32,000 nucleotides of DNA, taken from contig NZ_OW441264.1 in the NCBI RefSeq assembly GCF_936981045.1, positions 120,001 to 152,000 of the forward strand, read 5' to 3'. Under the pieces are notes generated by a model. The model was not told the origin of the DNA. It saw only the letters and a list, made by a program, of their open reading frames with translations, and did not search any database. Origin of the DNA: Candidatus Saccharimonadota bacterium. GTDB lineage: Bacteria; Bacteroidota; Bacteroidia; Cytophagales; Amoebophilaceae. The translations under genes and the position numbers were made by a program. Shown one piece after another: positions 1 to 30,386 of this stretch (positions within the stretch are counted from its first letter, which is position 1; every line of letters starts with the position of its first letter).

Positions 1-194
1 TAAGAATTTTTATTCTGCTTCCATTACTATTTCAGGGATAGAAAACATTCGTATGATTCAAAAAGGACAAGTAAGAGGAGCTAAAAATCATCTTTCTACT
101 TTTGAGAACTTTGCTATCTTAATGGCCGCATAATATCCAAAATTTGACTTAAACGAAAAACCTATACTAAGAAAACTATAGACGCGACAGAACC
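1..194 (+). mobile_element. IS6-family insertion sequence, copy 1 (last 194 bp only; the rest lies outside the window)
   Basis: Matches the 3' part of the complete copy at 6994-7826 and ends in the terminal repeat CGCGACAGAACC at 183-194. Confidence 0.9.
2..133 (+). CDS. IS6-family DDE transposase, C-terminal fragment (cut by window edge)
   Basis: Translates to KNFYSASITISGIENIRMIQKGQVRGAKNHLSTFENFAILMAA*, identical to the C-terminus of the 248-aa ORFs at 7019-7765 and elsewhere. Confidence 0.9.
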   Translation, partial: KNFYSASITISGIENIRMIQKGQVRGAKNHLSTFENFAILMAA

Positions 195-2914: not shown

Positions 2915-2940
2915 GTATCTGTTCAACCGCATGGTTGTGT
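2915..2940 (+). repeat. R-repeat 5' fragment, cut off by IS6 copy 2
   Basis: GTATCTGTTCAACCGCATGG matches the start of other R copies (6908, 20322, and the reverse complement of 28359 and 20149). Confidence 0.45.
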
Positions 2941-3772
2941 GGTTCTGTCGCGTCTATAGTTTTCTTAGTATAGGTTTTTCGTTTAAGTCAAATTTTGGAT
3001 ATTATGCGGCCATTAAGATAGCAAAGTTCTCAAAAGTAGAAAGATGATTTTTAGCTCCTCTTACTTGTCCTTTTTGAATCATACGAATGTTTTCTATCCC
3101 TGAAATAGTAATGGAAGCAGAATAAAAATTCTTAAAACCCAGCATAGGTTTTATCCGTTTTTTGATAAACCTATGATCTTGTTCAACTCTATTATTCAAA
3201 TATTTGTTTTGCAATATTTGAATGGTATGATCTTGATCAAGATCTGTATTGATCGCATCAAGGGCAGCTTTATTACTACCGCTTTTGTCAATTACTACTT
3301 TCTTAGGAATATTATTTTCTGTGATCGCCTTTCGAAAAAAAGAAAGCGTTGAAGACTTGTCTCTATGATCAGATAGAAAAAAGTCAACTGTATCACCATA
3401 ACGATCTACTGCTCTATATAAATAGATCCACTTCCCGTTTAGTTTAACATAGGTTTCATCCATTCTCCAACTACTACCAACTGGTCGTTTTCTTTTTCTT
3501 ACTGCTTTATCTATCAGAGGAACAAACTTAATAACCCATCTCTGTAGCGTAGAATGATCAACTCTTGCGCCTCTCATACGCATCATCTCTTCCAAATCTC
3601 TATAGCTCAAGGAAAAACGACACTTCATGTACACAAATAACAGGATGACTTCTGATGAAGAACAATAACCTTTAAAATATGGTAATAACTCGGGAGAAAT
3701 ATTAAACATAATAACTACTTTTTTAAATACCGATACTAAAATAATCATTTTTTAGAATAAACGCGACAGAAC
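2941..3772 (-). mobile_element. IS6-family insertion sequence, copy 2
   Basis: Bounded by GGTTCTGTCGCG (2941) and CGCGACAGAAC (3762-3772) and contains an intact transposase ORF. No 8-bp flanking duplication was seen. Confidence 0.95.
3002..3748 (-). CDS. IS6-family (IS26-like) DDE transposase
   Basis: WRMDETYVKLNGKWIYLYRAVD, VIDKSGSN and NNRVEQDH align with the IS26 Tnp DDE triad regions. The likely true start is the internal Met (MFNISPELL), because the first ATG lies in the IR. Confidence 0.93.
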   Translation of the reverse strand: MIILVSVFKKVVIMFNISPELLPYFKGYCSSSEVILLFVYMKCRFSLSYRDLEEMMRMRGARVDHSTLQRWVIKFVPLIDKAVRKRKRPVGSSWRMDETYVKLNGKWIYLYRAVDRYGDTVDFFLSDHRDKSSTLSFFRKAITENNIPKKVVIDKSGSNKAALDAINTDLDQDHTIQILQNKYLNNRVEQDHRFIKKRIKPMLGFKNFYSASITISGIENIRMIQKGQVRGAKNHLSTFENFAILMAA

Positions 3773-5112: not shown

Positions 5113-5421
5113 AGCAATAACATGTTCAAAATTATATAACTTATTATAGTCCTACTTAAGGCCCCCTTGTAAAAAGAGACTAAAAAGCCAGCTATCCGCC
5201 TAACCAGCGCGCTTACTGTTGTAAAAAATACTGAGCTATCAGATAACTAATTATAATAAATATTATGCTTACAAACAATATTTACAAGGAACCATTCATC
5301 TCAATCCAGCAAATTTTGTAGACCTTCCAGCTTGCTTACGCCATTTAATGGCTAATTTTTATCTTGGCATATTTTGTTTTTTGCATGTTTAGGTGGATTA
5401 TACTTGGTACATCGCATAGAC

Positions 5422-5661
5422 ACGTGAGTTCGGGATTAGATTATTTTTTCATTTGATAATCAATATCAATGAAAATTTATAAAATTTGTTTTATAGACAG
5501 TTAAATAGGTAGTTGAATAACAAATAATTCTTATAATCAGTTTATTATATATATTGTATTTATAAAATTAGATATAAAAACTTGTTAAATAGGTGCAAAT
5601 ATTAACTAAATAATTGATATTAAATTGTTGTAAATCAGTCAAATAAATCCCGAACTCACGT
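5422..5661 (+). mobile_element. AT-rich ~240-bp MITE, copy A (orientation a)
   Basis: Starts ACGTGAGTTCGGGATT and ends AATCCCGAACTCACGT. The interior is near-identical to the other copies. The flanks TAGAC/TAATA are not a clean duplication. Confidence 0.85.
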
Positions 5662-5780
5662 TAATAGGCACCCCCCACCTTTTGCCTTGAAATGTTGCGT
5701 TTTCAGAACCAACATGTTATACGATCAGATTGGTCAAAGTTCCTCACCGTATTAAGCGCATCGTGGAATCAATTGGGCTT

Positions 5781-6602: not shown

Positions 6603-6652
6603 AATTTTTACTGTTCATTAAGTTATACTTCCCAATATCATTGCTTGTTTAT

Positions 6653-6790
6653 GCTTCATTCGGCTGGATGGCAATGTTGCGACAAGCAAAGAGTCCGCTT
6701 TAAGCCCCCTCTTAGTAGAGAGTAGCGCAACTTGTTACTAAAAAGGGTATTGCTTGCATGCGTTCTGACCAAGCAAAAAGCAGAGTAGAT
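6653..6790 (+). repeat. Degenerate R-repeat copy
   Basis: Patchy matches to R modules: CATTCGGCTGGATGGC, GCAACTTGT and GACCAAGCAAAAAGCAG. Confidence 0.35.
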
Positions 6791-6907
6791 ACATTTCTTT
6801 TATAGGCTATGCTTCGTAAAAGGATAGTTTTTGGGATTCCTTAGATAACCTCAGGTTGCTGTTGTACTTACGGTTAATGTAATGGTTTCTTTTCAATTAT
6901 ACAAGCC

Positions 6908-6993
6908 GTATCCGTTCAACCAATGGCCAAACTGTCTACAAACCAGAAAAAACGTCCCCTGTAAAAAACTGCGATGCGTAAGTGAACCTTCAA
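6908..6993 (+). repeat. R-repeat 5' part, truncated by IS6 copy 3
   Basis: GTATCCGTTCAACCAATGGCC..AGAAAAAACGTCCCCTGTAAAAAACTGCGATGCGTAAGTG aligns with 17161-17205 of R1 and stops at the IS6 IR. Confidence 0.6.
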
Positions 6994-7826
6994 GGTTCTG
7001 TCGCGTTTATTCTAAAAAATGATTATTTTAGTATCGGTATTTAAAAAAGTAGTTATTATGTTTAATATTTCTCCCGAGTTATTACCATATTTTAAAGGTT
7101 ATTGTTCTTCATCAGAAGTCATCCTGTTATTTGTATACATGAAGTGTCGTTTTTCCTTGAGCTATAGAGATTTGGAAGAGATGATGCGTATGAGAGGCGC
7201 AAGAGTTGATCATTCTACGCTACAGAGATGGGTTATTAAGTTTGTTCCTCTGATAGATAAAGCAGTAAGAAAAAGAAAACGACCAATTGGTAGTAGTTGG
7301 AGAATGGATGAAACCTATGTTAAACTAAACGGGAAGTGGATCTATTTATATAGAGCAGTAGATCGTTATGGTGATACAGTTGACTTTTTTCTATCTGATC
7401 ATAGAGACAAGTCTTCAACGCTTTCTTTTTTTCGCAAGGCGATCACAGAAAATAATATTCCTAAGAAAGTAGTAATTGACAAAAGCGGTAGTAATAAAGC
7501 TGCCCTTGATGCGATCAATACAGATCTTGATCAAGATCATACCATTCAAATATTGCAAAACAAATATTTGAATAATAGAGTTGAACAAGATCATAGGTTT
7601 ATCAAAAAACGGATAAAACCTATGCTGGGTTTTAAGAATTTTTATTCTGCTTCCATTACTATTTCAGGGATAGAAAACATTCGTATGATTCAAAAAGGAC
7701 AAGTAAGAGGAGCTAAAAATCATCTTTCTACTTTTGAGAACTTTGCTATCTTAATGGCCGCATAATATCCAAAATTTGACTTAAACGAAAAACCTATACT
7801 AACGAAAATATAGACGCGACAGAACC
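6994..7826 (+). mobile_element. IS6-family insertion sequence, copy 3
   Basis: 833 bp, with GGTTCTGTCGCG at 6994 and CGCGACAGAACC ending at 7826, and an intact ORF. Confidence 0.95.
7019..7765 (+). CDS. IS6-family DDE transposase
   Basis: 248-aa ORF differing from copy 2 by a single residue (RPIGSSW versus RPVGSSW). Confidence 0.93.
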   Translation: MIILVSVFKKVVIMFNISPELLPYFKGYCSSSEVILLFVYMKCRFSLSYRDLEEMMRMRGARVDHSTLQRWVIKFVPLIDKAVRKRKRPIGSSWRMDETYVKLNGKWIYLYRAVDRYGDTVDFFLSDHRDKSSTLSFFRKAITENNIPKKVVIDKSGSNKAALDAINTDLDQDHTIQILQNKYLNNRVEQDHRFIKKRIKPMLGFKNFYSASITISGIENIRMIQKGQVRGAKNHLSTFENFAILMAA

Positions 7827-7847
7827 CGTTTGGCCAATGGTGTCACC

Positions 7848-9332: not shown

Positions 9333-9518
9333 ACTAGAAGATAGCTGCTTGAAAGTATTAATTAATATACGAAGTCACTTATGAATGTGGAAAAATACGT
9401 TGCCGATGCATTAAAAAAATTTTACCCCTTATATGGATTTATATTCTACTTCTGTAATAGAATATGTAAATATATTAAAGATTTAGTTTTAGTAACTATT
9501 TCTAATGAGATAATAATA

Positions 9519-9758
9519 ACTTGAGTTCGGGATTAGATTATTTTTTCATTTGATAATCAATATTAATAAAAATTTATAAAATTTGTTTTATAGACAGTTA
9601 AATAGGTAGTTGAATAACAAATAATTCTGATAATCAGTTTATTATATATATTATATTTATAAAATTAGATATAAAAACTTGTTAAATAGGTGCAAATATT
9701 AACTAAATAATTGATATTAAATTGTTGTAAATCAGTCAAATAAATACCGAACTCACGT
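9519..9758 (+). mobile_element. AT-rich ~240-bp MITE, copy B (orientation a)
   Basis: TIRs ACTTGAGTTCGGGATT / ATACCGAACTCACGT, flanked by the direct repeat TAATA (9514-9518 and 9759-9763). Confidence 0.9.
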
Positions 9759-9824
9759 TAATAAGTTAATTGGTAATCAATTACCAAGATTTATGTACGT
9801 TTTAGTGATTTTATCATGCAAGTA

Positions 9825-10657
9825 GGTTCTGTCGCGTCTATAGTTTTCTTAGTATAGGTTTTTCGTTTAAGTCAAATTTTGGATATTATGCGGCCATTAA
9901 GATAGCAAAGTTCTCAAAAGTAGAAAGATGATTTTTAGCTCCTCTTACTTGTCCTTTTTGAATCATACGAATGTTTTCTATCCCTGAAATAGTAATGGAA
10001 GCAGAATAAAAATTCTTAAAACCCAGCATAGGTTTTATCCGTTTTTTGATAAACCTATGATCTTGTTCAACTCTATTATTCAAATATTTGTTTTGCAATA
10101 TTTGAATGGTATGATCTTGATCAAGATCTGTATTGATCGCATCAAGGGCAGCTTTATTACTACCGCTTTTGTCAATTACTACTTTCTTAGGAATATTATT
10201 TTCTGTGATCGCCTTTCGAAAAAAAAAAAGCGTTGAAGACTTGTCTCTATGATCAGATAGAAAAAAGTCAACTGTATCACCATAACGATCTACTGCTCTA
10301 TATAAATAGATCCACTTCCCGTTTAGTTTAACATAGGTTTCATCCATTCTCCAACTACTACCAACTGGTCGTTTTCTTTTTCTTACTGCTTTATCTATCA
10401 GAGGAACAAACTTAATAACCCATCTCTGTAGCGTAGAATGATCAACTCTTGCGCCTCTCATACGCATCATCTCTTCCAAATCTCTATAGCTCAAGGAAAA
10501 ACGACACTTCATGTACACAAATAACAGGATGACTTCTGATGAAGAACAATAACCTTTAAAATATGGTAATAACTCGGGAGAAATATTAAACATAATAACT
10601 ACTTTTTTAAATACCGATACTAAAATAATCATTTTTTAGAATAAACGCGACAGAACC
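9825..10657 (-). mobile_element. IS6-family insertion sequence, copy 4
   Basis: 833 bp with the same terminal repeats and an intact ORF. Confidence 0.95.
9886..10632 (-). CDS. IS6-family DDE transposase
   Basis: 248 aa, one residue different (STLFFFRK) from the other copies. Confidence 0.93.
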   Translation of the reverse strand: MIILVSVFKKVVIMFNISPELLPYFKGYCSSSEVILLFVYMKCRFSLSYRDLEEMMRMRGARVDHSTLQRWVIKFVPLIDKAVRKRKRPVGSSWRMDETYVKLNGKWIYLYRAVDRYGDTVDFFLSDHRDKSSTLFFFRKAITENNIPKKVVIDKSGSNKAALDAINTDLDQDHTIQILQNKYLNNRVEQDHRFIKKRIKPMLGFKNFYSASITISGIENIRMIQKGQVRGAKNHLSTFENFAILMAA

Positions 10658-12014: not shown

Positions 12015-12064
12015 TCGATTTCTAAAGTAAGGATTTGATATGCTACTTATATTGGTGTTAAATA

Positions 12065-12304
12065 ACGTGAGCTCGGGATTTATTTGACTGATTTACAACA
12101 ATTTAATATCAATTATTTAGTTAATATTTGCACCTATTTAACAAGTTTTTGTATCTAATTTTATAAATAAAATATATATAATAAACTGATTACCAGAATT
12201 ATTTGTTATTCAACTACCTATTTAACTGTCTATAAAACAAATTTTATAAATTTTCATTAATATTGATTATCAAATTAAAAAATAATCTAATCCCGAACTC
12301 ACGT
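12065..12304 (-). mobile_element. AT-rich ~240-bp MITE, copy C (orientation b)
   Basis: ACGTGAGCTCGGGATT...AATCCCGAACTCACGT, flanked by TAAATA (12059-12064 and 12305-12310), 50 nt upstream of the mtaB start. Confidence 0.9.
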
Positions 12305-12546
12305 TAAATAGTAAATTACAAAATGATCGTAGCTAAAATGTTGATCCAACCTATCTGGTTTAGCTTAGCAAGTAATAAGTGTATATTAAATAAGTAGGTT
12401 ATTGGTCTGCTGCTGGACTTTATTTTATATAGTCGAAAAAAGAATAACTACCTACTTGCCATTATTTGTTTTGCATAAAATAGCAGAAGAATGTGTTGCA
12501 TTTTCTTATACGATGTAAGAACAAGAAAATATAATTATAATACACC

Positions 12547-12990
12547 ATGAATACAATATTAATGTGAGTTCGGGATTAGATTATTTTTTAATTTGATAAT
12601 CAATATTAATGAAAATTTATAAAATTTGTTTTATAGACAGTTAAATAGGTAGTTGAATAACAAATAATTATGGTAATCAGTTTATTGTATATATTTTATT
12701 TATAAAATTAGATATAAAAACTTGTTAAATAGGTGCAAATATTAACTAAATAATTGATATTAAATTGTTGTAAATCAGTCAAATAAATCCCGAACTCACG
12801 TTATTAGACTTAGATGTCAGCAAAAAATAGCTTGATGCATCTTTTTGTAATGCAGAAAATAAACCTGTATATCATAGAGTTTGGTAATAATGATAAAGGG
12901 CATAAGTCGCTTATGGCTTATTTGGCTCAAGCGCCCGTTAAGCTTATAGTATATGAACCAGCTGGTGGATGTGAGAAAGAGACATTTTAG
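12547..12990 (+). pseudogene. IS110-family transposase N-terminal remnant, interrupted by MITE copy D and carrying an in-frame TAG plus a frameshift
   Basis: Removing 12562-12806 restores MNTILDLDVSKK*LDASFCNAENKPVYHRV, then (after a frame shift) FGNNDKGHKSLMAYLAQAPVKLIVYEPAGGCEKETF*. This resembles the conserved IS110/DEDD N-terminus (IGxDVSK..LD .. F.N...G...L..wL .. vv.E.TGGYE). Confidence 0.55.
12562..12801 (+). mobile_element. AT-rich ~240-bp MITE, copy D (orientation a)
   Basis: ATGTGAGTTCGGGATT...AATCCCGAACTCACGT, flanked by TATTA (12557-12561 and 12802-12806). It is inserted after codon 5 of the IS110-like ORF. Confidence 0.9.
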
Positions 12991-13143: not shown

Positions 13144-15615
13144 ATGACCATATTCTCCTTGCCCCAACGGTATAATTTTTTGGAACGAGAAAAATATTGG
13201 CAGCACTTTTGGGCAACAGAATCGCTATATAGCTGGGATCCCACATTGCCTCGTGCAGATACTTTTGTGGTAGATACGCCTCCTCCTAGTATTTCTGGAC
13301 AGTTGCACATAGGCCATACCTGCAGCTATGCACAAGCTGATTTTATAGTCCGATTTCAACGCATGTTGGGTAAAAATATTTTTTATCCAATGGGCTTTGA
13401 TGATAATGGTTTACCCACAGAGCGATTGGTAGAAAAGCAAAAAGGCGTTCGTGTGGCTGATATGGATAGAGAGGAGTTTATAAGATTATGCTGGGAAGTA
13501 GTAGTTACTGAAGAGGAAAAGTGTAGGAATCTTTTTAAGGCTATGGCCCTTTCGGTTGACTGGAGCTTGGAATATCAGACGATTAGCCCACTATCTCGTA
13601 AGCTTTCGCAGATGTCTTTTTTGGCACTTTTGGAAAAAGGTGCGGTATACCGTAGTGCGCAACCTATGTTATGGGATCCAGTAGATGGTACCGCTTTGGC
13701 ACAAGCTGATATTGAAGACAAGGAGCGTGTCGCCTATATGAATGATATTCTATTTACACATGAAGCGACGCAAGCCCCTCTACCCATTGCTACGACTCGA
13801 CCAGAATTGTTGCCCGCTTGTGTGGCCTTATTCTACCATCCCGATGACTTGCGCTACCAGGATCTGGCCCACACCTATGCGATTACACCTATATTTAATA
13901 TAAGGGTCCCTATTTTAGCAGATGAGTTGGTTCAACCCAATAAGGGCACTGGTTTGGTGATGTGTTGCACGTTTGGAGACCCAACGGATGTAATGTGGTG
14001 GAAAAAACACCAATTGCCTACTTGTATCATCCTGAATAAACAAGGTAGGGTCACGCATACTGGTCCATTACAAGGGTTAAAGGTATCAGAAGCGCGTGAA
14101 AAAATCCTTCAAATCTTAAAAGATCAGTTGCTGTTGGTCAAGCAAACCGTCATACAGCAGTCTGTAAAATGTGCAGAACGTTCTGGTGCACCCTTAGAAA
14201 TGCTTACTACCCCCCAATGGTTTGTACGAACCATGGACCATAAAGCAGCACTTTTAGCTAAAGTCAAGCAACTCAAATGGCATCCTGCTGCCATGCAGCA
14301 TAGGCTAGAGGAATGGATTAATGGCATGGCTTGGGACTGGTGTATTAGCCGTCAACGTTATTTTGGTGTTCCTTTTCCGATTTGGTATTCTAAAAGATCT
14401 GGAGAAGAAGGTAAAGTTTTGGTGCCCACTATAGACCAGTTGCCTGTAAATCCACTTCAAGATCTACCCATAGGCTATACCAGCGCAGAGGTAGAACCAG
14501 ACTATGATGTGATGGATACTTGGGCAACTAGTAGTATTTCTCCCCAACTTTCTTCTCATGCTATTCATAAGGACTTTAGTGTGGACTATAATAGGCATCT
14601 CAAGTTGTTTCCAATGGATTTGCGCTCACAAGCCCATGAAATTATACGAACTTGGACCTTTTATACTTTACTCAAAGCCCATTTGCATGAGGATAGTGTG
14701 CCTTGGAAAAATATAATGATCCATGGGTGGTGCCTGGCGCCAGATAAACAAAAAATGTCTAAATCTAAGGGTAATGTGCTCCTTCCAGAAAAGCTTTTAC
14801 AAGCGTATGGGGCCGATGTTATCCGCTATTGGGCAGCCCATGCTCGTTTAGGTTCAGATACTTGTTATTCTGATAATGTGATGAAAAATGGGAAAAGGCT
14901 GGTTACTAAATTATGGAATGCCGGTAGGTTTATTTTAGGCCATTTGGATAAAATAGAAGGATTCAATCACCCGCTTGAGTTGCAAAAAATCACCCATACG
15001 CTAGATAAATGGCTCTTGCAATCGCTGGCAGAACTGACTGAAAAGGTCTATCTACAGTTACTAGCCTATCGGTATGCAGAGGCGTTGGAATCGGTAGAAA
15101 CATTCTTTTGGTCCATTTTTTGTGATGATTATCTCGAGATTAGTAAAGCTAGGGTCTATAATGGACTTCAGCAGGATGGTCAAGGTCAGCGTAGTGCTAT
15201 TTTAACGCTTTATCATACTTTCTATGGTCTATTACAGCTCTTTGCACCTATTTTGCCCCATATTACGGAAGAACTGTCTCAGGGGCTTTATCCCCATAAA
15301 GGTTCTATTCACCGAAGAGGCAATTGGCCTAAATGGGCATTACACGCTACTGTAAGTCAATCGCAACTGAACCAAGTAGTCCATCTTAGAGTAATCATTG
15401 GGTTGGTACGTAAGGCTAAAGCAGATTGTAAGCTTTCTATAAAATCGCCTATTGCATTGCTTGCCATTCGTGGTACACTTTTAGAGGAAGATTTAAGCCA
15501 AGATCTTAAAGCCGTTACTACGGCGACAAAAGTAGTATGTAATGACCTAACGTTGGATCGCATGGACCTACAAGTAGTGGGTAAGCAATGTGCAATAGGG
15601 ATAGTATGGGGATAA
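13144..15615 (+). CDS. valS: Valine--tRNA ligase (short, archaeal/actinobacterial/Rickettsia-like type)
   Basis: Class I motifs LHIGH and [22 protein letters not shown] and [12 protein letters not shown] are characteristic of type-2 ValRS. At 823 aa it lacks the long C-terminal coiled coil of E. coli-type ValRS. Confidence 0.85.
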
Positions 15616-15624: not shown

Positions 15625-15675
15625 GTGCTGTTTGTTGATCCAGCAAAAAACAGCACATCAATTCCTTTTTTACCA
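15625..15675 (+). terminator. Hairpin plus T-run after valS (a stand-alone copy of the R-repeat hairpin-2 module)
   Basis: GTGCTGTTT (15625-15633) pairs perfectly with AAACAGCAC (15648-15656). The loop contains TTGATCCAGCAA. The T-run CCTTTTTT follows. It begins 10 nt after the stop codon. Confidence 0.5.
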
Positions 15676-15909: not shown

Positions 15910-17127
15910 TTGTTGGCCTGTTATCCTTACATACCTGTCATTACGAGTTTGTGTTACAATAGTCAGATCCCATGGATCAAAGAACAAATAAAAAGCCATG
16001 CGGGCATTTACCTACACATCCCATTTTGTAAGCAAGCTTGCCACTATTGTAACTTTCACTTTAGTACTAAAGTATCCTTAAAATCATTAATGATAGACAG
16101 TATGCTTAAGGAAATTGCGCTGCGTCAGGATTATTTGCAAGGTATTCCGATTACCAGCATTTATTTTGGTGGAGGTACGCCTTCCCTATTAACCCTTTCA
16201 GAAATAGAGCGGTTGCTCCATCAACTCTTACGATTTTTTCCTATAGTACCAGCGGCAGAGATTACACTAGAGGCAAATCCTGATGACATAACGCTTGAAA
16301 AATTGCAAGGATTGCACCACATGGGTGTGAATAGACTCAGCATAGGCATACAGTCCTTTCATGATAAAGTACTTCGTTATATGAATAGGGCCCATACCAG
16401 TGCCATGGCCCAAAACAGTGTAAAATGGGCACGTGTTGCTGGCTTTGATAACTTAAATCTAGACCTTATTTATGCGATTCCTGGTACTACAACGCTGGAT
16501 TGGTATGCCGATTTAACACAAGCCCTATTGCTAGAACCAGAGCATATCTCTGCCTATTGTTTGACGATTAAACCCAAAACCGTATTTGGCTATTGGCATC
16601 AACAAGGCAGCATAAGTGAAATGGATGAAACCTTAACGGCAGAACAGTTTGAACTAGCAGTAGCAACTTGTAGCAAACAGGGTTATCTGCACTATGAAAT
16701 TTCTAATTTTTGTAAGCCGGAAAAATACTCCAGACACAATACAAACTACTGGAAATCCGGCCTATATATAGGTATAGGACCTGGTGCACATGCCTATAAT
16801 GGTCTGCAAAGGCAATGGAATATTTCCCATAATGCACTGTATATTAAAGCCATTCAAAATGGCAAGCTGCCTTATACGGAAGAAACATTAACGATGGCCA
16901 ATCATGTAAATGAATATATTATGACCAGTATCAGAACCTGCTGGGGATGTGACCTGGCTTGGATTCGTGAAAAATATGCTATTGACCTTATGGTCACACA
17001 AAAGGATTATTTAGCAAAAATTATCCTATGCGGATTGGCCAATTTGATTGGCCATACACTTTATTTAACAAATAGTGGTAAATTGCTAGCTGATAAAATA
17101 GCAAGTGATCTTTTTGTGGGTGGTTAA
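15910..17127 (+). CDS. hemW: Radical SAM heme chaperone HemW (HemN-like); start codon uncertain
   Basis: GIYLHIPFCKQACHYCNFHF radical-SAM motif and HemN C-terminal region. There is no in-frame ATG upstream of the conserved block, only TTG at 15910, 15913 and 15949. Confidence 0.8.
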   Translation: MLACYPYIPVITSLCYNSQIPWIKEQIKSHAGIYLHIPFCKQACHYCNFHFSTKVSLKSLMIDSMLKEIALRQDYLQGIPITSIYFGGGTPSLLTLSEIERLLHQLLRFFPIVPAAEITLEANPDDITLEKLQGLHHMGVNRLSIGIQSFHDKVLRYMNRAHTSAMAQNSVKWARVAGFDNLNLDLIYAIPGTTTLDWYADLTQALLLEPEHISAYCLTIKPKTVFGYWHQQGSISEMDETLTAEQFELAVATCSKQGYLHYEISNFCKPEKYSRHNTNYWKSGLYIGIGPGAHAYNGLQRQWNISHNALYIKAIQNGKLPYTEETLTMANHVNEYIMTSIRTCWGCDLAWIREKYAIDLMVTQKDYLAKIILCGLANLIGHTLYLTNSGKLLADKIASDLFVGG

Positions 17128-17134
17128 TCGCTCA

Positions 17135-17334
17135 ATGTCCTCTGCTGCTTACTGACCTTATTGCGAAAAAGAAGGCCCCTTGTAAAAGGTTGCGATGCAA
17201 AAGTCCATATTACCGTTGAAAAGAAAAACAGTTTAGGTGAAGGTCACGAAGTCGCTTCTGTTTTTTCCGGTGTGCTTGAAGCAACTTTTTATACAGGGCT
17301 TGATTTTTGGGCTACCTTTTGATCAAGCAAAAAG
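17135..17334 (+). repeat. R repeat, copy R1 (forward)
   Basis: GGCCCCTTGTAAAAGGTTGC (17174-17193) pairs with GCAACTTTTTATACAGGGC (17281-17299). TTGATTTTTGG follows, then the hairpin CTTTTGATCAAGCAAAAAG. It aligns with 25965-26153. Confidence 0.75.
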
Positions 17335-17354
17335 TGTGATATAAATTCTTTCCA

Positions 17355-19193: not shown

Positions 19194-19236
19194 GGGTATC
19201 TGTTTAGGTCAGTGATAAAAAAGGCATTTATATCCT

Positions 19237-19271
19237 GCTTTTTGCTTGATCAAAAAGTAGGCAAAAAAGCT
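19237..19271 (-). repeat. R repeat copy R5, hairpin-2 part (reverse orientation), abutting IS6 copy 5
   Basis: CTGCTTTTTGCTTGATCAAAAAGTAGGCAAAAAAGC matches 28175-28210. Confidence 0.65.
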
Positions 19272-20104
19272 GGTTCTGTCGCGTCTATAGTTTTCTTAGT
19301 ATAGGTTTTTCGTTTAAGTCAAATTTTGGATATTATGCGGCCATTAAGATAGCAAAGTTCTCAAAAGTAGAAAGATGATTTTTAGCTCCTCTTACTTGTC
19401 CTTTTTGAATCATACGAATGTTTTCTATCCCTGAAATAGTAATGGAAGCAGAATAAAAATTCTTAAAACCCAGCATAGGTTTTATCCGTTTTTTGATAAA
19501 CCTATGATCTTGTTCAACTCTATTATTCAAATATTTGTTTTGCAATATTTGAATGGTATGATCTTGATCAAGATCTGTATTGATCGCATCAAGGGCAGCT
19601 TTATTACTGCCGCTTTTGTCAATTACTACTTTCTTAGGAATATTATTTTCTGTGATCGCCTTTCGAAAAAAAGAAAGCGTTGAAGACTTGTCTCTATGAT
19701 CAGATAGAAAAAAGTCAACTGCATCACCATAACGATCTACTGCTCTATATAAATAGATCCACTTCCCGTTTAGTTTAACATAGGTTTCATCCATTCTCCA
19801 ACTACTACCAACTGGTCGTTTTCTTTTTCTTACTGCTTTATCTATCAGAGGAACAAACTTAATAACCCATCTCTGTAGCGTAGAATGATCAACTCTTGCG
19901 CCTCTCATACGCATCATCTCTTCCAAATCTCTATAGCTCAAGGAAAAACGACACTTCATGTATACAAATAACAGGATGACTTCTGATGAAGAACAATAAC
20001 CTTCAAAATATGGTAATAACTCGGGAGAAATATTAAACATAATAACTACTTTTTTAAATACCGATACTAAAATAATCATTTTTTAGAATAAGCGCGACAG
20101 AACC
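19272..20104 (-). mobile_element. IS6-family insertion sequence, copy 5
   Basis: 833 bp with the same terminal repeats and an intact ORF. Its flanks are the two ends of an R repeat. Confidence 0.95.
19333..20079 (-). CDS. IS6-family DDE transposase
   Basis: 248 aa, two residue differences (YFEGY, YGDAVDF) from the other copies. Confidence 0.93.
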   Translation of the reverse strand: MIILVSVFKKVVIMFNISPELLPYFEGYCSSSEVILLFVYMKCRFSLSYRDLEEMMRMRGARVDHSTLQRWVIKFVPLIDKAVRKRKRPVGSSWRMDETYVKLNGKWIYLYRAVDRYGDAVDFFLSDHRDKSSTLSFFRKAITENNIPKKVVIDKSGSNKAALDAINTDLDQDHTIQILQNKYLNNRVEQDHRFIKKRIKPMLGFKNFYSASITISGIENIRMIQKGQVRGAKNHLSTFENFAILMAA

Positions 20105-20149
20105 CTTTTTTGTTTATTTTGTTACATGGCCATACGGCTGAATGGATAC
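20105..20149 (-). repeat. R repeat copy R5, distal part (reverse orientation)
   Basis: CTTTTTTGTTTATTTTGTTACATGGCCATACGGCTGAATGGATAC aligns with 28313-28359 of R4. Confidence 0.6.
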
Positions 20150-20165
20150 AAAGATATAATGCGTG

Positions 20166-20321: not shown

Positions 20322-20539
20322 GTATCTATTCAGCTACCTGGTAACGTTACACTCCAAAAACAGAAGAAATGCCCATTATAAAAAGTTGCGACTCATCACC
20401 CTTTCCTGAAAGATGACCAGAAAATCAGTTTGGTTGGGCTTGTAGGGCGGCTTCTGGTTTTCCAGCTTTAGGGGTACACTTTCAGCAACTTTTTACACAG
20501 AGCTTGATTTTTTTGGCTACTTCTTTATCAAGAAAAAAG
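20322..20539 (+). repeat. R repeat, copy R3 (forward on +), between tRNA-Arg and tRNA-Pro
   Basis: GTATCTATTCAGC.., GCCCATTATAAAAAGTTGC .. GCAACTTTTTACACAGAGC, TTGATTTTTTTGGCTACTTCTTTATCAAGAAAAAAGTAGG. Confidence 0.7.
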
Positions 20540-20559
20540 TAGGATATACATTCCTTTCG

Positions 20560-20634: not shown

Positions 20635-20643
20635 AATGTACAA

Positions 20644-20883
20644 ACGTGAGTTCGGGATTTATTTGACTGATTTACAACAATTTAATATCAATTATTTAGT
20701 TAACATTTGCACCTATTTAACAAGTTTTTATATCTAATTTTATAAATATAATATATATAATAAACTGATTATCAGAATTATTTGTTATTCAACTACCTAT
20801 TTAACTGTCTATAAAACAAATTTTATAAATTTTTATTAATATTGATTATCAAATGAAAAAATAATCTAATCCCGAACTCACGT
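20644..20883 (-). mobile_element. AT-rich ~240-bp MITE, copy E (orientation b), between tRNA-Pro and tRNA-Ser
   Basis: Perfect TIRs ACGTGAGTTCGGGATT / AATCCCGAACTCACGT, flanked by TACAA (20639-20643 and 20884-20888). Confidence 0.92.
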
Positions 20884-20901
20884 TACAAGTAAGATAGTGG
20901 G

Positions 20902-23954: not shown

Positions 23955-24183
23955 GGATGTAACCCATTTAAAACGTTATAGCGCTATATGGATAGTGGTG
24001 GTGCGGCCTGAAATCTAGGATAAGATGTTAACCTATAACACCTTATTACCTAGAAATGATTGCTAAATCATATATAAGATGCAGGATGCTTCTACCTGAT
24101 GGGGCCTGAATGGATCATACATACTATACGACTCGGATGCAGCGTTGTGTTTTACCCCAGTTTCTGGTTTTCAAGTCTTAATA

Positions 24184-25824: not shown

Positions 25825-25964
25825 TTTGATTGAATATCAAATTAGACCTATTTTGAAGCCTATTTCTAATGACAATTTTGGTGTCGAAGCTTGTTTATGC
25901 TCGTCAAATACACCCTACTACAAGGCATAGCATATTGGAAATAAAATTAATAATTCAGAAATTG

Positions 25965-26153
25965 TGCTGCTTATTGTTCCTATTACGAAAAAGAACGCCC
26001 CTTGTAAAAAGTTGCCATTAGAAAGTGCACCTTACAAATGAAAAGAAAAATTGAAGCCCGCGTAGCGGACGAGTTCTGTTTTTCTCGGTGTGCTTGCAGC
26101 AATTTTTTGCATGAGGGCTTGATTTTTTGGCTACTTTTTGATCCAGCAAAAAG
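25965..26153 (+). repeat. R repeat, copy R2 (forward)
   Basis: TGCTGCTTATTG..CGAAAAAGAACGCCCCTTGTAAAAAGTTGC .. GCAATTTTTTGCATGAGGGCTTGATTTTTTGGCTACTTTTTGATCCAGCAAAAAG, colinear with R1. Confidence 0.75.
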
Positions 26154-26174
26154 CAACATTCATCATCCTTATTA

Positions 26175-26413
26175 ACGTGAGTTCGGTATTTATTTGACTG
26201 ATTTACAATAATTTAATATCAATTATTTAGTTAATATTTGCACCTATTTAACAAGTTTTTATATCTAATTTTATAAATATAATATATATAATAAACTGAT
26301 TATCAGAATTATTTTTTATTCAACAACCTATTTAACTGTCTATAAAACAAATTTTATAAATTTTCATTAATATTGATTATCAAATAAAAAATAATCTAAT
26401 CCCGAACTCACGT
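26175..26413 (-). mobile_element. AT-rich ~240-bp MITE, copy F (orientation b), ending 13 nt before the metG ATG
   Basis: ACGTGAGTTCGGTATT...AATCCCGAACTCACGT, flanked by TATTA (26170-26174 and 26414-26418). Confidence 0.92.
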
Positions 26414-26426
26414 TATTAGTACACAA

Positions 26427-28127
26427 ATGGCTCATCCAAAAAGATATACGGTTACCGCTGCACTTCCCTATGCAAATGGGCCCGTCCACTTAGGTCATGT
26501 AGCAGGGGCCTATCTTCCTGCTGATATTTACGTTCGTTATTTAAGGCAAAAACAAGCTACTGTAGTGTTTATTAGTGGTTCTGATGAACATGGGGTGCCT
26601 GTGGTAATTCGTGCCCAACAAGAAGGTTCTACGCCTCAAAAAGTAGTGGATCAATACCATACACTTATTAAAGAATCACTAGATGGATTGGGTATTAGCT
26701 TTGATATCTTTGCAAGAACGTCCTCACCTACTCATTATGAGACCGCAACGGAATTTTTTAAGGAATTGCACCAAAAGGACATATTTGAGGTGTATGCAAC
26801 AGAGCAATATTATGACCCTGTTTGTGAGCAATTTCTATCTGATCGCTACATCAAGGGCAGCTGTCCGAACCCGAACTGTAATCATCCCGATGCCTATGGA
26901 GATCAATGTGAAGCGTGTGGCAGCACACTAAGTCCAGAAGAATTGATTGATCCAATTTCTGTTATTAGCGGCGCAAAACCTATTTTAAGATCCACTAAAC
27001 ATTGGTATCTACCACTAGATAAGTATGAAGGCTGGCTTAAAAAGTGGATTTTAGAAGAACATAAAGATTTTAAAACCAATGTATATGGTCAATGTAAAAG
27101 CTGGCTAGACCAAGGTTTGCGTCCACGTGCTGTAACCCGTGATTTAGCTTGGGGCATTCCTGTTCCACTGCCTGAAGGAAGCGGAAAGGTCCTCTATGTC
27201 TGGTTCGATGCACCGATTGGGTATATTAGCGCAACCAAAGAGTGGGCAAAAGCACAACAAATCGATTGGAAACCTTTTTGGAAAGATCCAGCTACCAAGC
27301 TTGTCCATTTCCTTGGCAAAGACAATATTGTATTCCATTGTATTATTTTTCCTGTTATGCTTAAAGCACATGGAAAGTTTATTTTGCCTCAGCAGGTTCC
27401 AGCCAATGAATTTTTAAATTTAGAGGGAAAGAAGATTTCTACATCCCGCAACCATGCGGTTTGGTTGCATGATTATTTAGCAGATTTTCCAGATAAAGCA
27501 GATGTATTGCGTTATGTACTCTGTACCATTGCGCCAGAAAATAAAGACAGCGATTTTACTTGGCAAGATTTCCAGGATAAAAATAATTATGAACTGGTAG
27601 CTAACCTTGGCAATTTGGTCCATAGAACCCTAAGTTTGGTGCATCAATATTTTCGTGGATTGGTTCCACCCAATATGGCGCCTAATGAAGCGGATCAATC
27701 CTTACTGACTACATTAATGGCTTCTTTTACAGAAGTAGGTAATGCTATAGAACAGTTTAAATTTAAAGAAGCACTCCAATTATGTATGGGCTACGCTACA
27801 TTGGGCAATAAATACCTAACCGATAGGCGACCATGGCATTTGGTAAAAAGCAACCTAGAAGAGGCTGGCACTGTATTGCATGTCACATTGCAACTCATAG
27901 CTACTGTAACCCTGTTGATCAAACCTTTTTTGCCTACAACAAGTGAGAAAATGGCGCATATGTTGGGGTTAAAAGAAACAGGCTGGGGGAACTTACATGT
28001 GACCAAGCTCGTACAATCAGGGGATCCATTAGCACTTCCTATATTATTATTTGAGAAAATTGAAGATGATGTCATTGAAGTACAAAGGAAAAAGTTACAA
28101 AGCCTATCTACTGAAACAGTAGTGTAA
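26427..28127 (+). CDS. metG: Methionine--tRNA ligase (short form without a C-terminal tRNA-binding domain)
   Basis: PVHLGH (HIGH), KISTS (KMSKS), zinc knuckle CPNPNCNHPDAYGDQCEACG, 566 aa. Confidence 0.92.
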   Translation: MAHPKRYTVTAALPYANGPVHLGHVAGAYLPADIYVRYLRQKQATVVFISGSDEHGVPVVIRAQQEGSTPQKVVDQYHTLIKESLDGLGISFDIFARTSSPTHYETATEFFKELHQKDIFEVYATEQYYDPVCEQFLSDRYIKGSCPNPNCNHPDAYGDQCEACGSTLSPEELIDPISVISGAKPILRSTKHWYLPLDKYEGWLKKWILEEHKDFKTNVYGQCKSWLDQGLRPRAVTRDLAWGIPVPLPEGSGKVLYVWFDAPIGYISATKEWAKAQQIDWKPFWKDPATKLVHFLGKDNIVFHCIIFPVMLKAHGKFILPQQVPANEFLNLEGKKISTSRNHAVWLHDYLADFPDKADVLRYVLCTIAPENKDSDFTWQDFQDKNNYELVANLGNLVHRTLSLVHQYFRGLVPPNMAPNEADQSLLTTLMASFTEVGNAIEQFKFKEALQLCMGYATLGNKYLTDRRPWHLVKSNLEEAGTVLHVTLQLIATVTLLIKPFLPTTSEKMAHMLGLKETGWGNLHVTKLVQSGDPLALPILLFEKIEDDVIEVQRKKLQSLSTETVV

Positions 28128-28174
28128 AGCACTTTATGGATACTTTTTTTCTTGATACGAAGGATGATATCTAC

Positions 28175-28359
28175 CACTTTTTGCTTGATCAAAAAGTGGA
28201 CAAAAAATCAAGATCAAGCGCTGATGAAAAAAGTTGTGAGTAGAAAATGTAGCTTACAGCTGATTTTCCAGCTACAAGCTACATTTTCTACTCACAACTT
28301 TTTCCAATGCGCATTTTTTCTTGTTTTAGGGTAGTATGGCTAAAAGGTTGAATGGATAC
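28175..28359 (-). repeat. R repeat, copy R4 (reverse), with a near-perfect ~35-bp stem
   Basis: Hairpin CCACTTTTTGCTTGATCAAAAAGTGG. The long inverted repeat 28227-28262 / 28269-28303 (AAAAAGTTGTGAGTAGAAAATGTAGCTT..) has 2 mismatches. It ends GGTTGAATGGATAC. Confidence 0.8.
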
Positions 28360-28405
28360 TAATTAACGTGAGTTCGGGATTTATTTGACTGATTTACAAC
28401 AATTT

Positions 28406-29681
28406 TAGGCCGTTGTGATAGATTTCTATTATAATATTTTTAGGGTTGTTTAGACTGATTTTTGGTATTAAAGTGGTATTAATTTTATTATTTATTGATT
28501 TTCATGTACTTTTATTGCATTTTAGACAGACCATTCCTCTAAAGACCTCTTAATATGATATTTGGCGACCTGTATAAGTTATAGGCTATTGCTTCGATAA
28601 CGTGTTGCGTATGAGTTTTAGCAAGTCCTATGTAGCGAGCTCCTGAGCTTCGGAACCAACTTTTAATACTTCCAAATACACGTTCTACTTTATACCTGGT
28701 TTTAGCTACCAATGTATTAAACCGTTTAGCAGTAGGTGATAAAGGATTATTTCTAGTAGCTTTCTTCTGAATAGCTGATTTTAAGGCTTTATTCTTTAAT
28801 AAGGTTTCATTAGGTGATCCGCTATAGCCCTTATCTGCATATAGCCTACTACCTACTTTTAGCTCTACTTTATCCAATAAGACTTGTAAATGAGCACTAT
28901 CATGACTAGATGCTTTTGTGGTACTGACTGCTAGGACTAAGCCTTCTTTACTTTCCACAAGGATGTGACGCTTATACCCATAGTAGAGATTATCTCCTTT
29001 TTTTGTCCAACTCGCTTCTGGATCTACACCTTTTTGATAACTTTCGGCTACAGTTATAGTGCCATCTTCATGGAGATCATAGCTTTTTTTACCTTTAGGG
29101 CGCCTAGGGGTAGGCGTAATAGAGGCATCAACAACTGCACCATGTTGAACTAATACACCATGACTAGATAGTTGATCGTTAATTATTTTCAATAACCTTT
29201 CTAGGACCTGCTTCTCCGTAAGCGCAGTCCTAAACCTGCTTAATACGCTATGATCTGGAACAGAACTATCCATGGAAATACGACAAAATCTGCTGAAAGT
29301 GATACGATCATTTACTTCTTCTTCTACTTGATAGTCACTCAGAGCATACCATGTTTGAAGCAACAGCATTTTAAATAAAAGAAGTGGGCTATAAGCTGCC
29401 TTTCCTGATAAACACAAACCTTTAGGATAATACAAGAAAAGTTCTTTTTCTATTACTTTCCAAGTAATCAGCTTATTAAGCTGATCGAAAAAAGTATGCT
29501 TACACTTACGTCGACTGGCTGAAATATCTGCAAAACTTAATTGATTATTTGTTTTGACGGCCATAACAATATTATTAAAAAGCTTAAGTTTAAACGATTA
29601 AAGAATCAACCTAATTTAACCATTGTATAACACTAAAAGTCACTTTTTATAACAAAGCTTAAAACTCTATTGCAACAACTT
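28406..29681 (-). mobile_element. IS5-family insertion sequence (~1.28 kb) nested in MITE G
   Basis: Contains a 341-aa IS5/InsH-like transposase. The MITE sequence (C)AATTT is duplicated at both junctions. The terminal repeats are imperfect (GTTGT..ATAGA.TTT), so the ends are good to about +/-5 nt. Confidence 0.8.
28539..29564 (-). CDS. IS5-family DDE transposase (InsH-like)
   Basis: N-terminal LSFADI..YSPLLLFKMLLLQTWYALSDYQVEEEVNDRITFSRF (transposase InsH N-terminal domain pattern). DDE region VVDASI .. YADKGY .. ERVFGSIK. Confidence 0.85.
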   Translation of the reverse strand: MAVKTNNQLSFADISASRRKCKHTFFDQLNKLITWKVIEKELFLYYPKGLCLSGKAAYSPLLLFKMLLLQTWYALSDYQVEEEVNDRITFSRFCRISMDSSVPDHSVLSRFRTALTEKQVLERLLKIINDQLSSHGVLVQHGAVVDASITPTPRRPKGKKSYDLHEDGTITVAESYQKGVDPEASWTKKGDNLYYGYKRHILVESKEGLVLAVSTTKASSHDSAHLQVLLDKVELKVGSRLYADKGYSGSPNETLLKNKALKSAIQKKATRNNPLSPTAKRFNTLVAKTRYKVERVFGSIKSWFRSSGARYIGLAKTHTQHVIEAIAYNLYRSPNIILRGL

Positions 29682-29955
29682 CAATTTAATATCAATTATT
29701 TAGTTAATAATTGCACCTATTTAATAAGTTTTTATATCTAATTTTATAAATATAATATATATAATAAACTGATTATCAGAATTATTTGTTATTCAACTAC
29801 CTATTTAACTGTCTATAAAACAAATTTTATAAATTTTTATTAATATTGATTATCAAATGAAAAAATAATCTAATCCCGAACTCACGTTGGTTAGTATTTT
29901 TTTATCTCCAAATTTAAAACACAAAGGAGCTTTTTAAAGCTATTTTTTAACAAGC

Positions 29956-29972
29956 TAATCCCGAACTCAGGT
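29956..29972. repeat. Solo MITE terminus
   Basis: TAATCCCGAACTCAGGT has one mismatch to the MITE end, with no MITE interior attached. It lies 5 nt before the point where ppdK homology begins. Confidence 0.7.
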
Positions 29973-29977
29973 TATAT

Positions 29978-30379
29978 AAGATTGGTGTAATGATAGAGTT
30001 GCCAAGAGCAGCCTTACAAGCGGCAACCATTTCACCATTGGTCGATTTTTTTAGAATTGGAACCAATGATTTAACCCAAACTACCCTTGGTATTTCACGT
30101 GATGATGGCGCAAAATTTTTAGACAGTTACCAACAAAAGGGCTTGCTTAAAGGAGACCCTTTTGTTACGCTTGATCAAGAAGGCGTTGGAAAATTGATTC
30201 AAATAGCGGTAGCAAGAGGTAGGTCGGCCAATCCAAATTTAAAAATAGGTATTTGTGGCGAACATGGAGGCAATCCACCTTCTATTGAATTTTTCGAGTC
30301 GATAGGTTTAGATTATATATCCTGTTCTCCATATAGAGTGCCTATTGCAAAGTTAGCTGCTGCCAAGGTAAGGAAGTGA
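29978..30379 (+). pseudogene. ppdK: Pyruvate, phosphate dikinase C-terminal remnant (~133 codons of an expected ~900)
   Basis: [13 protein letters not shown] .. [20 protein letters not shown] .. [35 protein letters not shown] matches the PEP-utilising TIM-barrel end of PPDK. No upstream domains are present. Confidence 0.8.
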
Positions 30380-30386
30380 TATTCTT

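Follow-up and report, generated by a model that had tools for sequence, protein, structure and literature searches.

The stretch of DNA analysed here, hereafter the window, comprises 32,000 nucleotides (nt) of contig NZ_OW441264.1 (RefSeq assembly GCF_936981045.1, positions 120,001 to 152,000 of the forward strand). This is chromosomal DNA carrying housekeeping genes, with a GC content of about 37%, most likely from a Cardinium endosymbiont; the nearest named relatives of its methionyl-tRNA synthetase (MetRS, the metG product) belong to Cardinium endosymbionts. Pfam families recognised in its open reading frames (ORFs) include a class I aminoacyl-tRNA synthetase of the Ile/Leu/Val/Met type, a radical-SAM protein, an ABC transporter, a Mur ligase, an FtsX-like protein and metG. 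Between genes of this kind lies a family of repeats, named R, 190–230 bp long in the window and always located outside ORFs of at least 120 codons. These repeats are very probably MITEs (transposable elements of the miniature inverted-repeat type) with a conserved structured core, the 3' part of which recurs across the Bacteroidota. An initial annotation, made from the letters alone, had seen in R composite hairpin repeats reminiscent of repetitive extragenic palindromic (REP) sequences and their BIME mosaics, of Correia elements or of RPEs, and it is partly supported as a whole. It was right to see a dispersed family of structured, non-coding repeats, and R is no piece of a known RNA gene: at gathering threshold Rfam finds three tRNAs in the whole window and nothing else. 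It had missed that TTGATTTTTT and the terminal hairpin make up a single phylum-conserved module, and that the loop of this hairpin pairs with the TTGAT hexamer.

A complete element, of about 250 bp, would comprise in succession a left terminal inverted repeat (TIR; GTATCYRTTCARC…), an A-rich leader, a first helix (P1), the hexamer C-UUGAU with a U-run, a second hairpin of 11 bp (P2), a short tail and a right TIR. Five copies in the window, R1 to R5, keep the 3' module (Table 1); to these are added two 5' fragments cut by insertion sequences (IS) of the IS6 type, and one or two weak relics. A nhmmer profile built from the four full copies and run on the window recovers those and little else. 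A covariance model of the 3' module, trained mostly on other genomes, finds exactly five strong copies (49–66 bits, E from 4e-9 to 9e-13), the next best match scoring 19.5 bits. Mean column identity in the four-way alignment is 65%, and the fixed order of modules proposed at the outset holds there as well as in the alignment with other Cardinium copies. The four long copies first placed at 17135-17334, 25965-26153, 20322-20539 and 28175-28359 are all recovered (E=1e-62 to 4e-46). Two reverse pieces (19237-19271 and 20105-20149) prove to be the halves of R5 around one IS, and the fragments at 2915-2940 (an exact 5' terminal repeat, cut by an IS) and 6908-6993 are genuine. By contrast, a fragment near 6653-6790 survives as a weak relic only (E about 0.1, 8 bits), one at 5160-5230 is not significant (E=1.4) and a possible one at 24103-24120 has no support.

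Table 1. Coordinates of R elements, their parts and the associated mobile DNA in the window
Feature	Position	Strand	Details
R4, best-preserved copy	28167..28360	-	5' TIR, A-rich leader, P1, TTGAT(C)TTGATTTTTTG, P2; nhmmer E=4e-46
R4 left TIR	28347..28359	-	GTATCCATTCAAC; exact pattern match; motif recurs at the ends of the L087 and L068 copies flanked by target duplications
R4 P1	28225..28306	-	38-nt arms, 6-nt loop, GCGC/GCGC closing; ATTTTTTCTTGTTTT next on + strand
R4 conserved module	28169..28217	-	CTTGAT, U-run, P2 (TCCACTTTTTG / ATCAAG / CAAAAAGTGG); covariance model 66.2 bits, E=9e-13
R1	17126..17344	+	nhmmer E=1e-62; module 17294-17342, 51.9 bits; TIRs not recognisable
R2	25961..26163	+	nhmmer E=1e-54; module 26113-26161; loop mutated to ATCCAG; outer stem decayed; 3' tail cut by MITECca01-like insertion at 26168
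R3	20322..20549	+	nhmmer E=3e-61; between tRNA-Arg and tRNA-Pro; 5' TIR 20322-20334; module 20498-20547; 3' end halts at the tRNA-Pro gene
R5, 3' part	19196..19266	-	U-run remnant, P2, tail, right TIR (…CCTAAACAGATAC, 19196-19208); nhmmer 19229-19277, E=4e-10; 49.5 bits
R5, 5' part	20105..20149	-	left TIR GTATCCATTCAGC (20137-20149) and A-rich leader; far side of the same IS; nhmmer 20106-20150, weak
R 5' fragment	6905..6993	+	TIR 6908-6920, leader, 5' arm of P1; cut by IS6-type IS at 6994; nhmmer 6905-6996, E=1e-7
R 5' fragment	2915..2940	+	TIR GTATCTGTTCAAC and 13 nt; cut by IS6-type IS at 2941
Heavily decayed R copy (probable, weak)	6650..6792	+	P1-like GTTGCG…CGCAAC, degenerate P2, GAGTAGATAC; nhmmer E 0.1-0.17; 8.2 bits
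IS6/IS240-type IS, 838 bp	2941-3772, 6994-7831, 9825-10657, 19267-20104, partial 1-194		248-aa transposase; copies 99-100% identical
Young MITE family, ~245 nt	5422-5672, 9517-9765, 12061-12307, 12559-12805, 20643-20885, 26168-26416, 29647-29889; fragment 28358-28405		96-99% identical; ends ACGTGAGTTCGGGATTTATTTGAC

The copies occur in either orientation, often just past a stop codon: at 0 nt for R1, 3 nt for R5, 40 nt for R4 (the metG stop is at 28127) and 137 nt for R2. R1 occupies the gap between the stop of the radical-SAM gene (17127) and the start of the ABC-transporter gene (17355), and it is the ABC-transporter stop that precedes the 3' part of R5. In R4 the near-perfect stem of about 35 bp noticed initially is real: the arms of P1 (28225-28262 and 28269-28306) are 92% complementary and the RNA fold reaches -77.6 kcal/mol (z=-14.8). 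The corresponding folds of R1 to R3 are marginally better than those of shuffled sequences (z between -1 and -2.6), so that an intact inner stem is kept in R4 only. As had been said, no ORF is conserved: the one of 60 codons at 28152-28334 (TTG start) is not shared between copies, and no evidence that it is coding was found, no scan against protein families or homologues having been made. In R5, P1 is missing and the IS between the halves (19267-20104) has no direct flanking repeat. This points to halves brought together by an IS-mediated rearrangement, and suggests a deletion or inversion rather than a simple insertion. The class I aminoacyl-tRNA synthetase gene (13144-15615) stops 12 nt before a lone P2-like hairpin at 15627-15655 (GCTGTTTGTTG ATCCAG CAAAAAACAGC), which is followed by an R-like tail (CATCAATTCCTTTTTT); this hairpin reaches no more than 13.6 bits with the module model and may be a relic or a product of chance.

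Ends, target duplications and age of the R elements

Full-length relatives of R exist in two other Cardinium genomes, where they measure 250–257 bp and are bounded by TIRs of about 13–22 bp. In Cardinium sp. TP (locus L087, 5550-5806) the element starts with GTATGTGTTCAGC, ends with …GAACAGATAC and sits within a perfect 8/8 target-site duplication (TSD), CCAAAATT; in Cardinium cBcalN2 (locus L068, 1852-2101) it starts as the 5' part of R5 does, ends with …GAACGGCTAC and is flanked by GTCAAAAA, again 8/8. In both, the 5' end carries GTATSYRTTCAGC… and the 3' end the complement of it. The exact TIR occurs five times in the window, every time at the 5' end of an R element; this is the 'start' GTATCC(A/G)TTCA(A/G)CC of the initial annotation, and complete elements are longer than the unit described there. 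The 3' TIR is recognisable in R5 and in a relic, R6, only, and no target duplication is detectable at the window copies, which are truncated or rearranged. R is thus short (below about 300 bp) and non-coding, and its full relatives carry TIRs and perfect 8-bp target duplications, which is why we take it, with considerable confidence, as a MITE family with a conserved structured core. Duplications of 8 bp imply insertion by a DDE transposase, which would act in trans.

The copies of the window are old and decaying, and the family is now largely immobile. In the Cardinium of Nabis limbatus (L126), where MetRS is only 87% identical to that of the window, an orthologue of R2 lies at the same site upstream of metG, with the same flanks (9740-9949), and this argues for an old family; P1 and P2 are better kept there than in R2 itself. 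In the Cardinium of Philonthus spinipes (L125) the R2 site instead holds an apparent remnant of an IS transposase, metG leads directly into ppdK, and R4 is absent. Gene order downstream of metG is worth recording. Both these strains (L125, 11674-16362; L126, 11725-16158) have ppdK next after metG, then a PDDEXK/AAA-ATPase-like gene, and glnS/gltX beyond it. In the window (28128-30386) ppdK and the PDDEXK/AAA-ATPase-like gene are missing, replaced by R4, a fragment of another MITE, an IS4/5-type transposase gene and a full copy of that MITE.

That other MITE makes a convenient yardstick. The genome of Cardinium cOegibbosus contains 109 copies of ISCca2 (IS6) and a MITE of about 240 bp, MITECca01 (PMC9769881), and the IS and MITE content of the window agrees with that description: it has four full copies and a partial one of an IS6/IS240-type IS, an IS4/IS5-type transposase and a young family of about 245 nt that fits MITECca01, a derivative of IS982 (PMC9769881). 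MITECca01/02 resemble R in host type, in a size of about 240 bp, and in being intergenic and non-coding. They differ from it in an unrelated sequence and TIR (ACGTGAGTTCGGG… for MITECca01), in youth (96–99% identity), in being strain-specific and in having a known parental IS, whereas R is old (65% identity) and common to several Cardinium strains. A MITECca01-like copy has even gone into the tail of R2 (at 26168), just ahead of the start of metG and with TATTA duplicated. R itself is not described in the Cardinium genome papers PMC9769881 and PMC4007549.

Of the analogies first put forward, that with Correia elements is the closest. Known from Neisseria as CREE or NEMIS, these are, like R, short non-coding MITEs with TIRs, many intergenic copies and a long hairpin. 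They are co-transcribed with their neighbours and act as terminators and as sites of RNA processing or stability. They are, however, 100–155 bp long, with a TA duplication and with TIRs of 26 bp that themselves make up the hairpin; the duplication of R is of 8 bp, its hairpin is internal and separate from the TIRs, and it carries in addition a pseudoknot module conserved far beyond one genus. The likeness to REP/BIME sequences and to the REPINs linked to RAYT did not stand. To be sure, these too are intergenic, palindromic and multicopy, without an adjacent transposase, with proposed roles as terminators or mRNA stabilisers and with a tendency to form mosaics. Yet REPs are GC-rich palindromes of 20–40 bp with a GTAG/CGTC tag (PMC3733652), species-specific and devoid of TIRs and TSDs, and R is an AT-rich element of about 250 bp, with TIRs and TSDs, the outer P2 stem of which has no fixed tag. 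The RPE analogy fails because R is intergenic and not inserted in frame within genes. As a MITE, R is new, although of a known kind; what may be new in a stronger sense is the pseudoknot module, common to unrelated repeats across the phylum. In MAG RI_134, a metagenome-assembled genome (MAG) of an unrelated lineage, the same module lies in a repeat of about 330 bp with other TIRs (AATGTTTCTCCGC / …GGAGAAGCATT) and an 8-bp duplication of its own, AAACTTTT.

A structured module shared across the Bacteroidota

The pattern TTGATTTTTN{4,7}ACNNNTTNATCNAGNAAAAAG, scanned over one genome per species, is found at no fewer than 118 loci, nearly all in Bacteroidota, and exact-pattern scanning gave at least 120 loci in metagenomes. 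Among the matches listed are Flavobacteriales, Bacteroidales, Sphingobacteriales, Chitinophagales and Cytophagales, including Cardinium, often with several copies within 8 kb. Positions that the pattern leaves free are conserved nevertheless: a C almost always precedes TTGAT, NNN reads TTT and ATCAAG forms the loop. The module thus consists of C-TTGAT, a U-run and an 11-bp hairpin with loop ATCAAG, with an invariant core of about 25 nt in a motif of about 45 nt. Judged by these sequences, it is not specific to Cardinium and is nearly unchanged in intergenic DNA throughout the phylum. It is also carried by plasmids of Parabacteroides, Aureibacter and Persicobacter, occurs five times on a megaplasmid of Ilyobacter (Fusobacteriota), and is rare on viral contigs (three matches); a BLAST search of a phage collection gave no match. 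Rfam 15 holds no family matching it in the window or in 23 further loci (18 loci examined at gathering threshold, 13 at E<=1-10), and a full-text literature search for the motif sequence or related concepts returned nothing relevant.

Covariation among the copies proves the P2 hairpin and the pairing of its loop with the hexamer. In P2, 97.3% of cells are paired, with 90 double-change cells against 28±4 in shuffles (none of 500 shuffles reaching that value), four covarying pairs that include the one closing the loop, and an outer stem that varies (GTTAC, CTCCAC, GGTAC…). The compensatory substitutions that had been asked of the stems are therefore present, in P1 as well. The 6-nt loop AUCAAG pairs with CUUGAU upstream, and the two vary together: at loci where the hexamer was fixed by the search, ATCAAG accompanies CTTGAT in 124 of 131 cases, TTCAAG accompanies CTTGAA in 5 of 5 and GTCAAG accompanies CTTGAC in 3 of 3. 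An independent scan of metagenomes placed no constraint on the hexamer and asked for nothing more than a first loop base other than A; hexamer and loop are complementary in 107 of 121 modules, and three more of the matches listed keep a G·U pair. Such covariation of a loop with an upstream strand indicates a pseudoknot. Variant and canonical forms coexist in the same genomes, which means that the constraint is pairing in cis and not the specificity of a shared protein.

The first helix is far less uniform. P1 always lies upstream of the module and, in the matches listed, closes 0–3 nt before C-TTGAT, yet it takes the form of a 10-bp stem with a G-rich loop of 26 nt, of a hairpin with arms of about 60 bp (Cardinium), or of the closing stem of a multi-helix domain of about 200 nt, with covariation of its own, in Mucilaginibacter and relatives and in two viral contigs. 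The P1 domain is not conserved between lineages. The 200-nt form, GTCAGCAAAAAAGCTTCGGGCGAAAGC … GGCAAAGGCCTTGTGCGGCAAAGAAGC, has no Rfam match; it precedes the module in L030, L071, L084, L089, L099, L112 and L117 (Mucilaginibacter and relatives) and in L119 and L120 (IMG/VR viral contigs), and at most of these loci a conserved hairpin, CCGCGGCAATTGAGCGG, follows P2. In L119 and L120 a conserved ORF starting with MSDKKITDLP lies about 55 nt downstream of it.

The folding is specific to one strand. The sense strand folds more stably in 90 of 111 non-identical instances (Wilcoxon 5e-11), an asymmetry to which base composition may contribute, and P2 contains 24 G·U against 6 A·C. Conservation extends over the U-run of the linker and the U5 and A5 strands of P2, and in four of five variants with an A4 stem the linker is CUUUUG. 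This is the layout required by a pseudoknot of the H type with U·A-U triples in its major groove, which may be what the module forms. SAM-II and SAM-V riboswitches, telomerase RNA and ENE-type triple helices share with it a 5' strand, a U-run, a U-rich stem strand, a back-pairing loop and an A-run. It departs from them in that no ligand-related gene accompanies it, no Rfam family matches it and the entire 6-nt hairpin loop enters the second helix, the triplex itself being a model.

Among the matches listed from beyond the window, about 125 of 130 module instances lie outside ORFs of at least 120 codons. The upstream gene is co-oriented in 55 cases and not in 27, a modest bias, and contexts are tandem-sense (34), tandem-antisense (17), convergent (20) or divergent (9). 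Adjacent copies within a locus share their orientation 13 times against 1, some of them being tandem or segmental duplicates. Clustering of the ORFs around some 240 of these loci identified no recurrent neighbouring protein, Pfam searches on 150 neighbouring ORFs returned ordinary housekeeping genes with nothing recurrent, and no IS or transposase adjoins the module across the 240 loci.

A number of known systems were compared with the module and set aside. The FopS/GibS small RNAs (sRNAs) of Bacteroides are specific to Bacteroidaceae and already in Rfam (PMC11697453), and the guide RNAs of dCas12f-sigmaE are encoded beside their operon (PMC13472631), a neighbour that the module lacks. The sRNA BTnc231 of Bacteroides gave 23.7 bits at L010 (6721-6866, minus strand) for a threshold of 80.4 and has a 10-nt loop and no CUUGAU; the match aligns the stem of U-run and A-run, not the loop or the hexamer, and may reflect chance or distant kinship. 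A Bacteroidota promoter (TTTG … TAnnTTTG) has the wrong spacing, TACTTTTTG being one base too long and 2–4 nt from the first TTTG. Integron attC, Xer/dif (11-6-11) and FNR boxes (TTGAT-N4-ATCAA) are rejected on account of arms that covary as pairs within one strand, a missing R'/R'' consensus and a spacing of 17–19 nt. Type III antitoxin repeats (pseudoknots of 34–36 nt) would require a tandem array by a toxin gene, and there is none. A -1 frameshift signal (U UUU UUG followed by a knot) is contradicted by a variable length and by the lack of an ORF through the module, and guide pairing of group I or II introns by the absence of GUGYG and domain V.

Possible functions and competing explanations

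In the explanation that we favour, R is a MITE with terminator-like action in Cardinium, the cargo of which (P1, hexamer with U-run, P2) would be one lineage of the structured module conserved across the Bacteroidota and folding on one strand. Taken as a whole this account is probable rather than firm. P1 in Cardinium has a GC-rich base, a 5' A-run (e.g. ACAAGAAAAAATGCGC) and UUGAUUUUUU on its 3' side, and so reads as a factor-independent terminator in both directions. P1 ends with …GGGC, …AGCC or …CGAC and in all instances is followed by TTGATTTTTTG, and in Cardinium the A-run ahead of it gives the same look to the other strand; on the metG strand R4 appears as a 38-bp hairpin followed by AUUUUUUCUUGUUUU. 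A bidirectional terminator would fit the position of four of the five module-bearing copies, just past stop codons (0–137 nt) in either orientation. R might then be a mobile, bidirectional terminator-like cassette with a structured knot, working like a Correia element without being one. Motifs of this sort make a terminator function in Cardinium a serious possibility, with a chance slightly below even. As for the knot, the loop–hexamer helix, the U-run and the U5:A5 stem of P2 might together fold compactly as an H-type pseudoknot that stacks on P1 and perhaps contains U·A-U triples. One guess is that it provides read-through transcripts with a nuclease-resistant cap or with a protein or ribozyme site; that it is a device for RNA stability is rather unlikely.

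Several observations weigh against this account. No copy in the window has both TIRs and a target duplication, so that the assignment as a MITE depends on the relatives; a parental IS with the TIR of R was found neither in the window nor in the Cardinium loci, and the ends of the IS6-type IS (GGTTCTGT…, GGTTCTGTCGCG) share with it TCTGT(T) only, a weak resemblance. TIRs are not visible in the copies of some other lineages (CANHRE for example), the module lies elsewhere between differing TIRs, and it is hard to see why a MITE mobilised by a DDE enzyme should require an RNA fold that is conserved throughout a phylum. Nor does a terminator need an invariant loop or a pseudoknot: termination leaves the role of the latter unexplained, and no U-run follows P2. 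About one third of the instances among the matches listed point away from any upstream gene, and at locus L020 four copies in one orientation are antisense to their neighbours. Finally, single-stranded DNA (ssDNA) could account for the covariation and for the strand asymmetry as well as RNA does.

The combination of P1, CUUGAN with a U-run, and P2 with loop N'UCAAG might be an undescribed functional RNA found throughout the Bacteroidota and spilling into Fusobacteriota: a triple-helical pseudoknot used as ribozyme, nuclease-resistant cap or protein-docking site, repeatedly captured by MITEs and other repeats, with R of Cardinium as a fossil lineage. We put this forward tentatively, as a model with something like one chance in three. 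In a rival view, R and its relatives would be genes for a small RNA that is present in many copies and acts in trans or as a catalyst, for instance a protein-binding RNA or a new self-cleaving ribozyme; TIRs and TSDs would then be incidental, RNA genes having been captured inside MITEs. The invariant core of some 25 nt, the proven hairpin, the pseudoknot, the elaborate covarying domain ahead of it and strand-specific folding all suit such genes, as does the presence of the module between differing TIRs or without visible ones, on viral contigs, on plasmids and in Fusobacteriota. However, visual inspection shows no Bacteroidota promoter at a constant distance, the P1 domain differs between lineages, and the decay of the window copies (loop and outer stem of R2, inner stems of R1 to R3) argues against an essential RNA in Cardinium. 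We consider this view unlikely.

Another line of thought returns to ssDNA. The module could be the recognition or cleavage site of an HUH/Y1-type enzyme (RAYT-, IS200/IS605- or IS91-like) encoded elsewhere, in elements akin to REPINs or PATEs that fold as DNA during replication. The covariation and the excess of G·T over A·C are as expected of ssDNA as of RNA, and strand-biased insertion would produce the common orientation of adjacent copies, including the four of L020. TTGAT is the target and transposon-associated motif (TAM) of ISDra2 (IS200/IS605), and CTTG/AT resembles the nick site of the pC194 and phiX174 Rep proteins, two likenesses that the module recalls. The absence of a linked protein is what is seen with REPs served by a single-copy RAYT. 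IS200/IS605 ends and PATEs also share with the module an asymmetric end, a sub-terminal hairpin a few nt from TTGAT and strand-specific folding. Yet the intact copies of Cardinium and RI_134 have TIRs and 8-bp duplications, which neither IS200/IS605 elements nor REPs possess, and PATEs of the IS200/IS605 type insert 3' of a fixed tetra- or pentanucleotide; no Y1 or TnpB gene lies nearby, and Y1/OrfB is not among the 25 most frequent Pfam families of the 150 neighbouring ORFs. Within one genome, copies have sequence in common to the left and right of TTGAT, with no break there; REPs are normally species-specific and not invariant over a phylum, and the multi-helix form of P1, of about 200 nt, in Sphingobacteriaceae looks more like RNA. 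We regard an ssDNA site as rather improbable.

Two further ideas have very little left to recommend them. Plain intrinsic terminators, alike by convergence and neither mobile nor a family, would explain the terminator-like look of P1 with its U-run and the placing of four of the five module-keeping copies; hardly any room is left for them by a likeness that spans about 200 nt, leader, tail and TIRs included (profile E of 1e-46 to 1e-62), by the TSDs, by copies located between tRNA genes or upstream of genes, and by an invariance of the module that exceeds what termination requires. That coding sequence in decay, or what is left of a known IS end, accounts for R, as the 60-codon ORF over R4 and the truncated R elements adjoining three of the four full IS6-type copies might suggest, is scarcely believable: the ORF is not conserved between copies, the module varies in length by 1–3 nt and so preserves no reading frame, neither an IS nor a transposase adjoins the 240 listed loci, and the junctions with the IS cut R at a different internal place each time (2941, 6994 and 19267/20104), which marks them as truncations and not as shared ends.

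For Cardinium genomics, R represents a second, older MITE family, absent from the curated annotation of a repeat-rich Cardinium genome (PMC9769881). In this genome, where regulatory DNA is being lost, the family furnishes several gene ends with terminator-like hairpins. The module is among the most widespread conserved non-coding motifs of Bacteroidota found here and has no Rfam family. The RNA biology of this phylum is poorly mapped; its members are not known to have Hfq or ProQ, or to rely on pairing of the Shine-Dalgarno type. A structured module that is common and easily recognised offers a concrete target for experiments and a useful feature for annotation.

Minor observations

Some loci display unusual arrangements. 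On a plasmid of Parabacteroides distasonis (NZ_OY725754.1; L122, 1960-2541) two inverted modules (CTTGAC/GTCAAG and CTTGAA/TTCAAG) stand around GC-rich inverted repeats of about 100 bp, which enclose an annotated ORF of 24 codons ('smalltalk protein') between HU-family and amidase genes; a giant hairpin is possible there. On plasmid pAT6 of Aureibacter tunicatorum (L123, 2501-2541) a copy of the module separates cas7d from cas5d within a type I-D cas operon and stands 12 nt ahead of the start of cas5d. In MAG Ww66 (L013, about 250-330 and 430-470, and likewise at the corresponding places in the two further copies) inverted 25-nt palindromic repeats (GTCACCCTGAGCTTGTCGAAGGGTGAC) flank the module-bearing repeat, forming a BIME-like mosaic of unrelated small repeats. 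Away from R, the minus strand of the window has two adjoining ORFs of 193 and 196 codons (288-869 and 897-1487) that resemble tandem paralogues, with a repeat of 197 nt (391-587 and 1015-1211) that is 82% identical.

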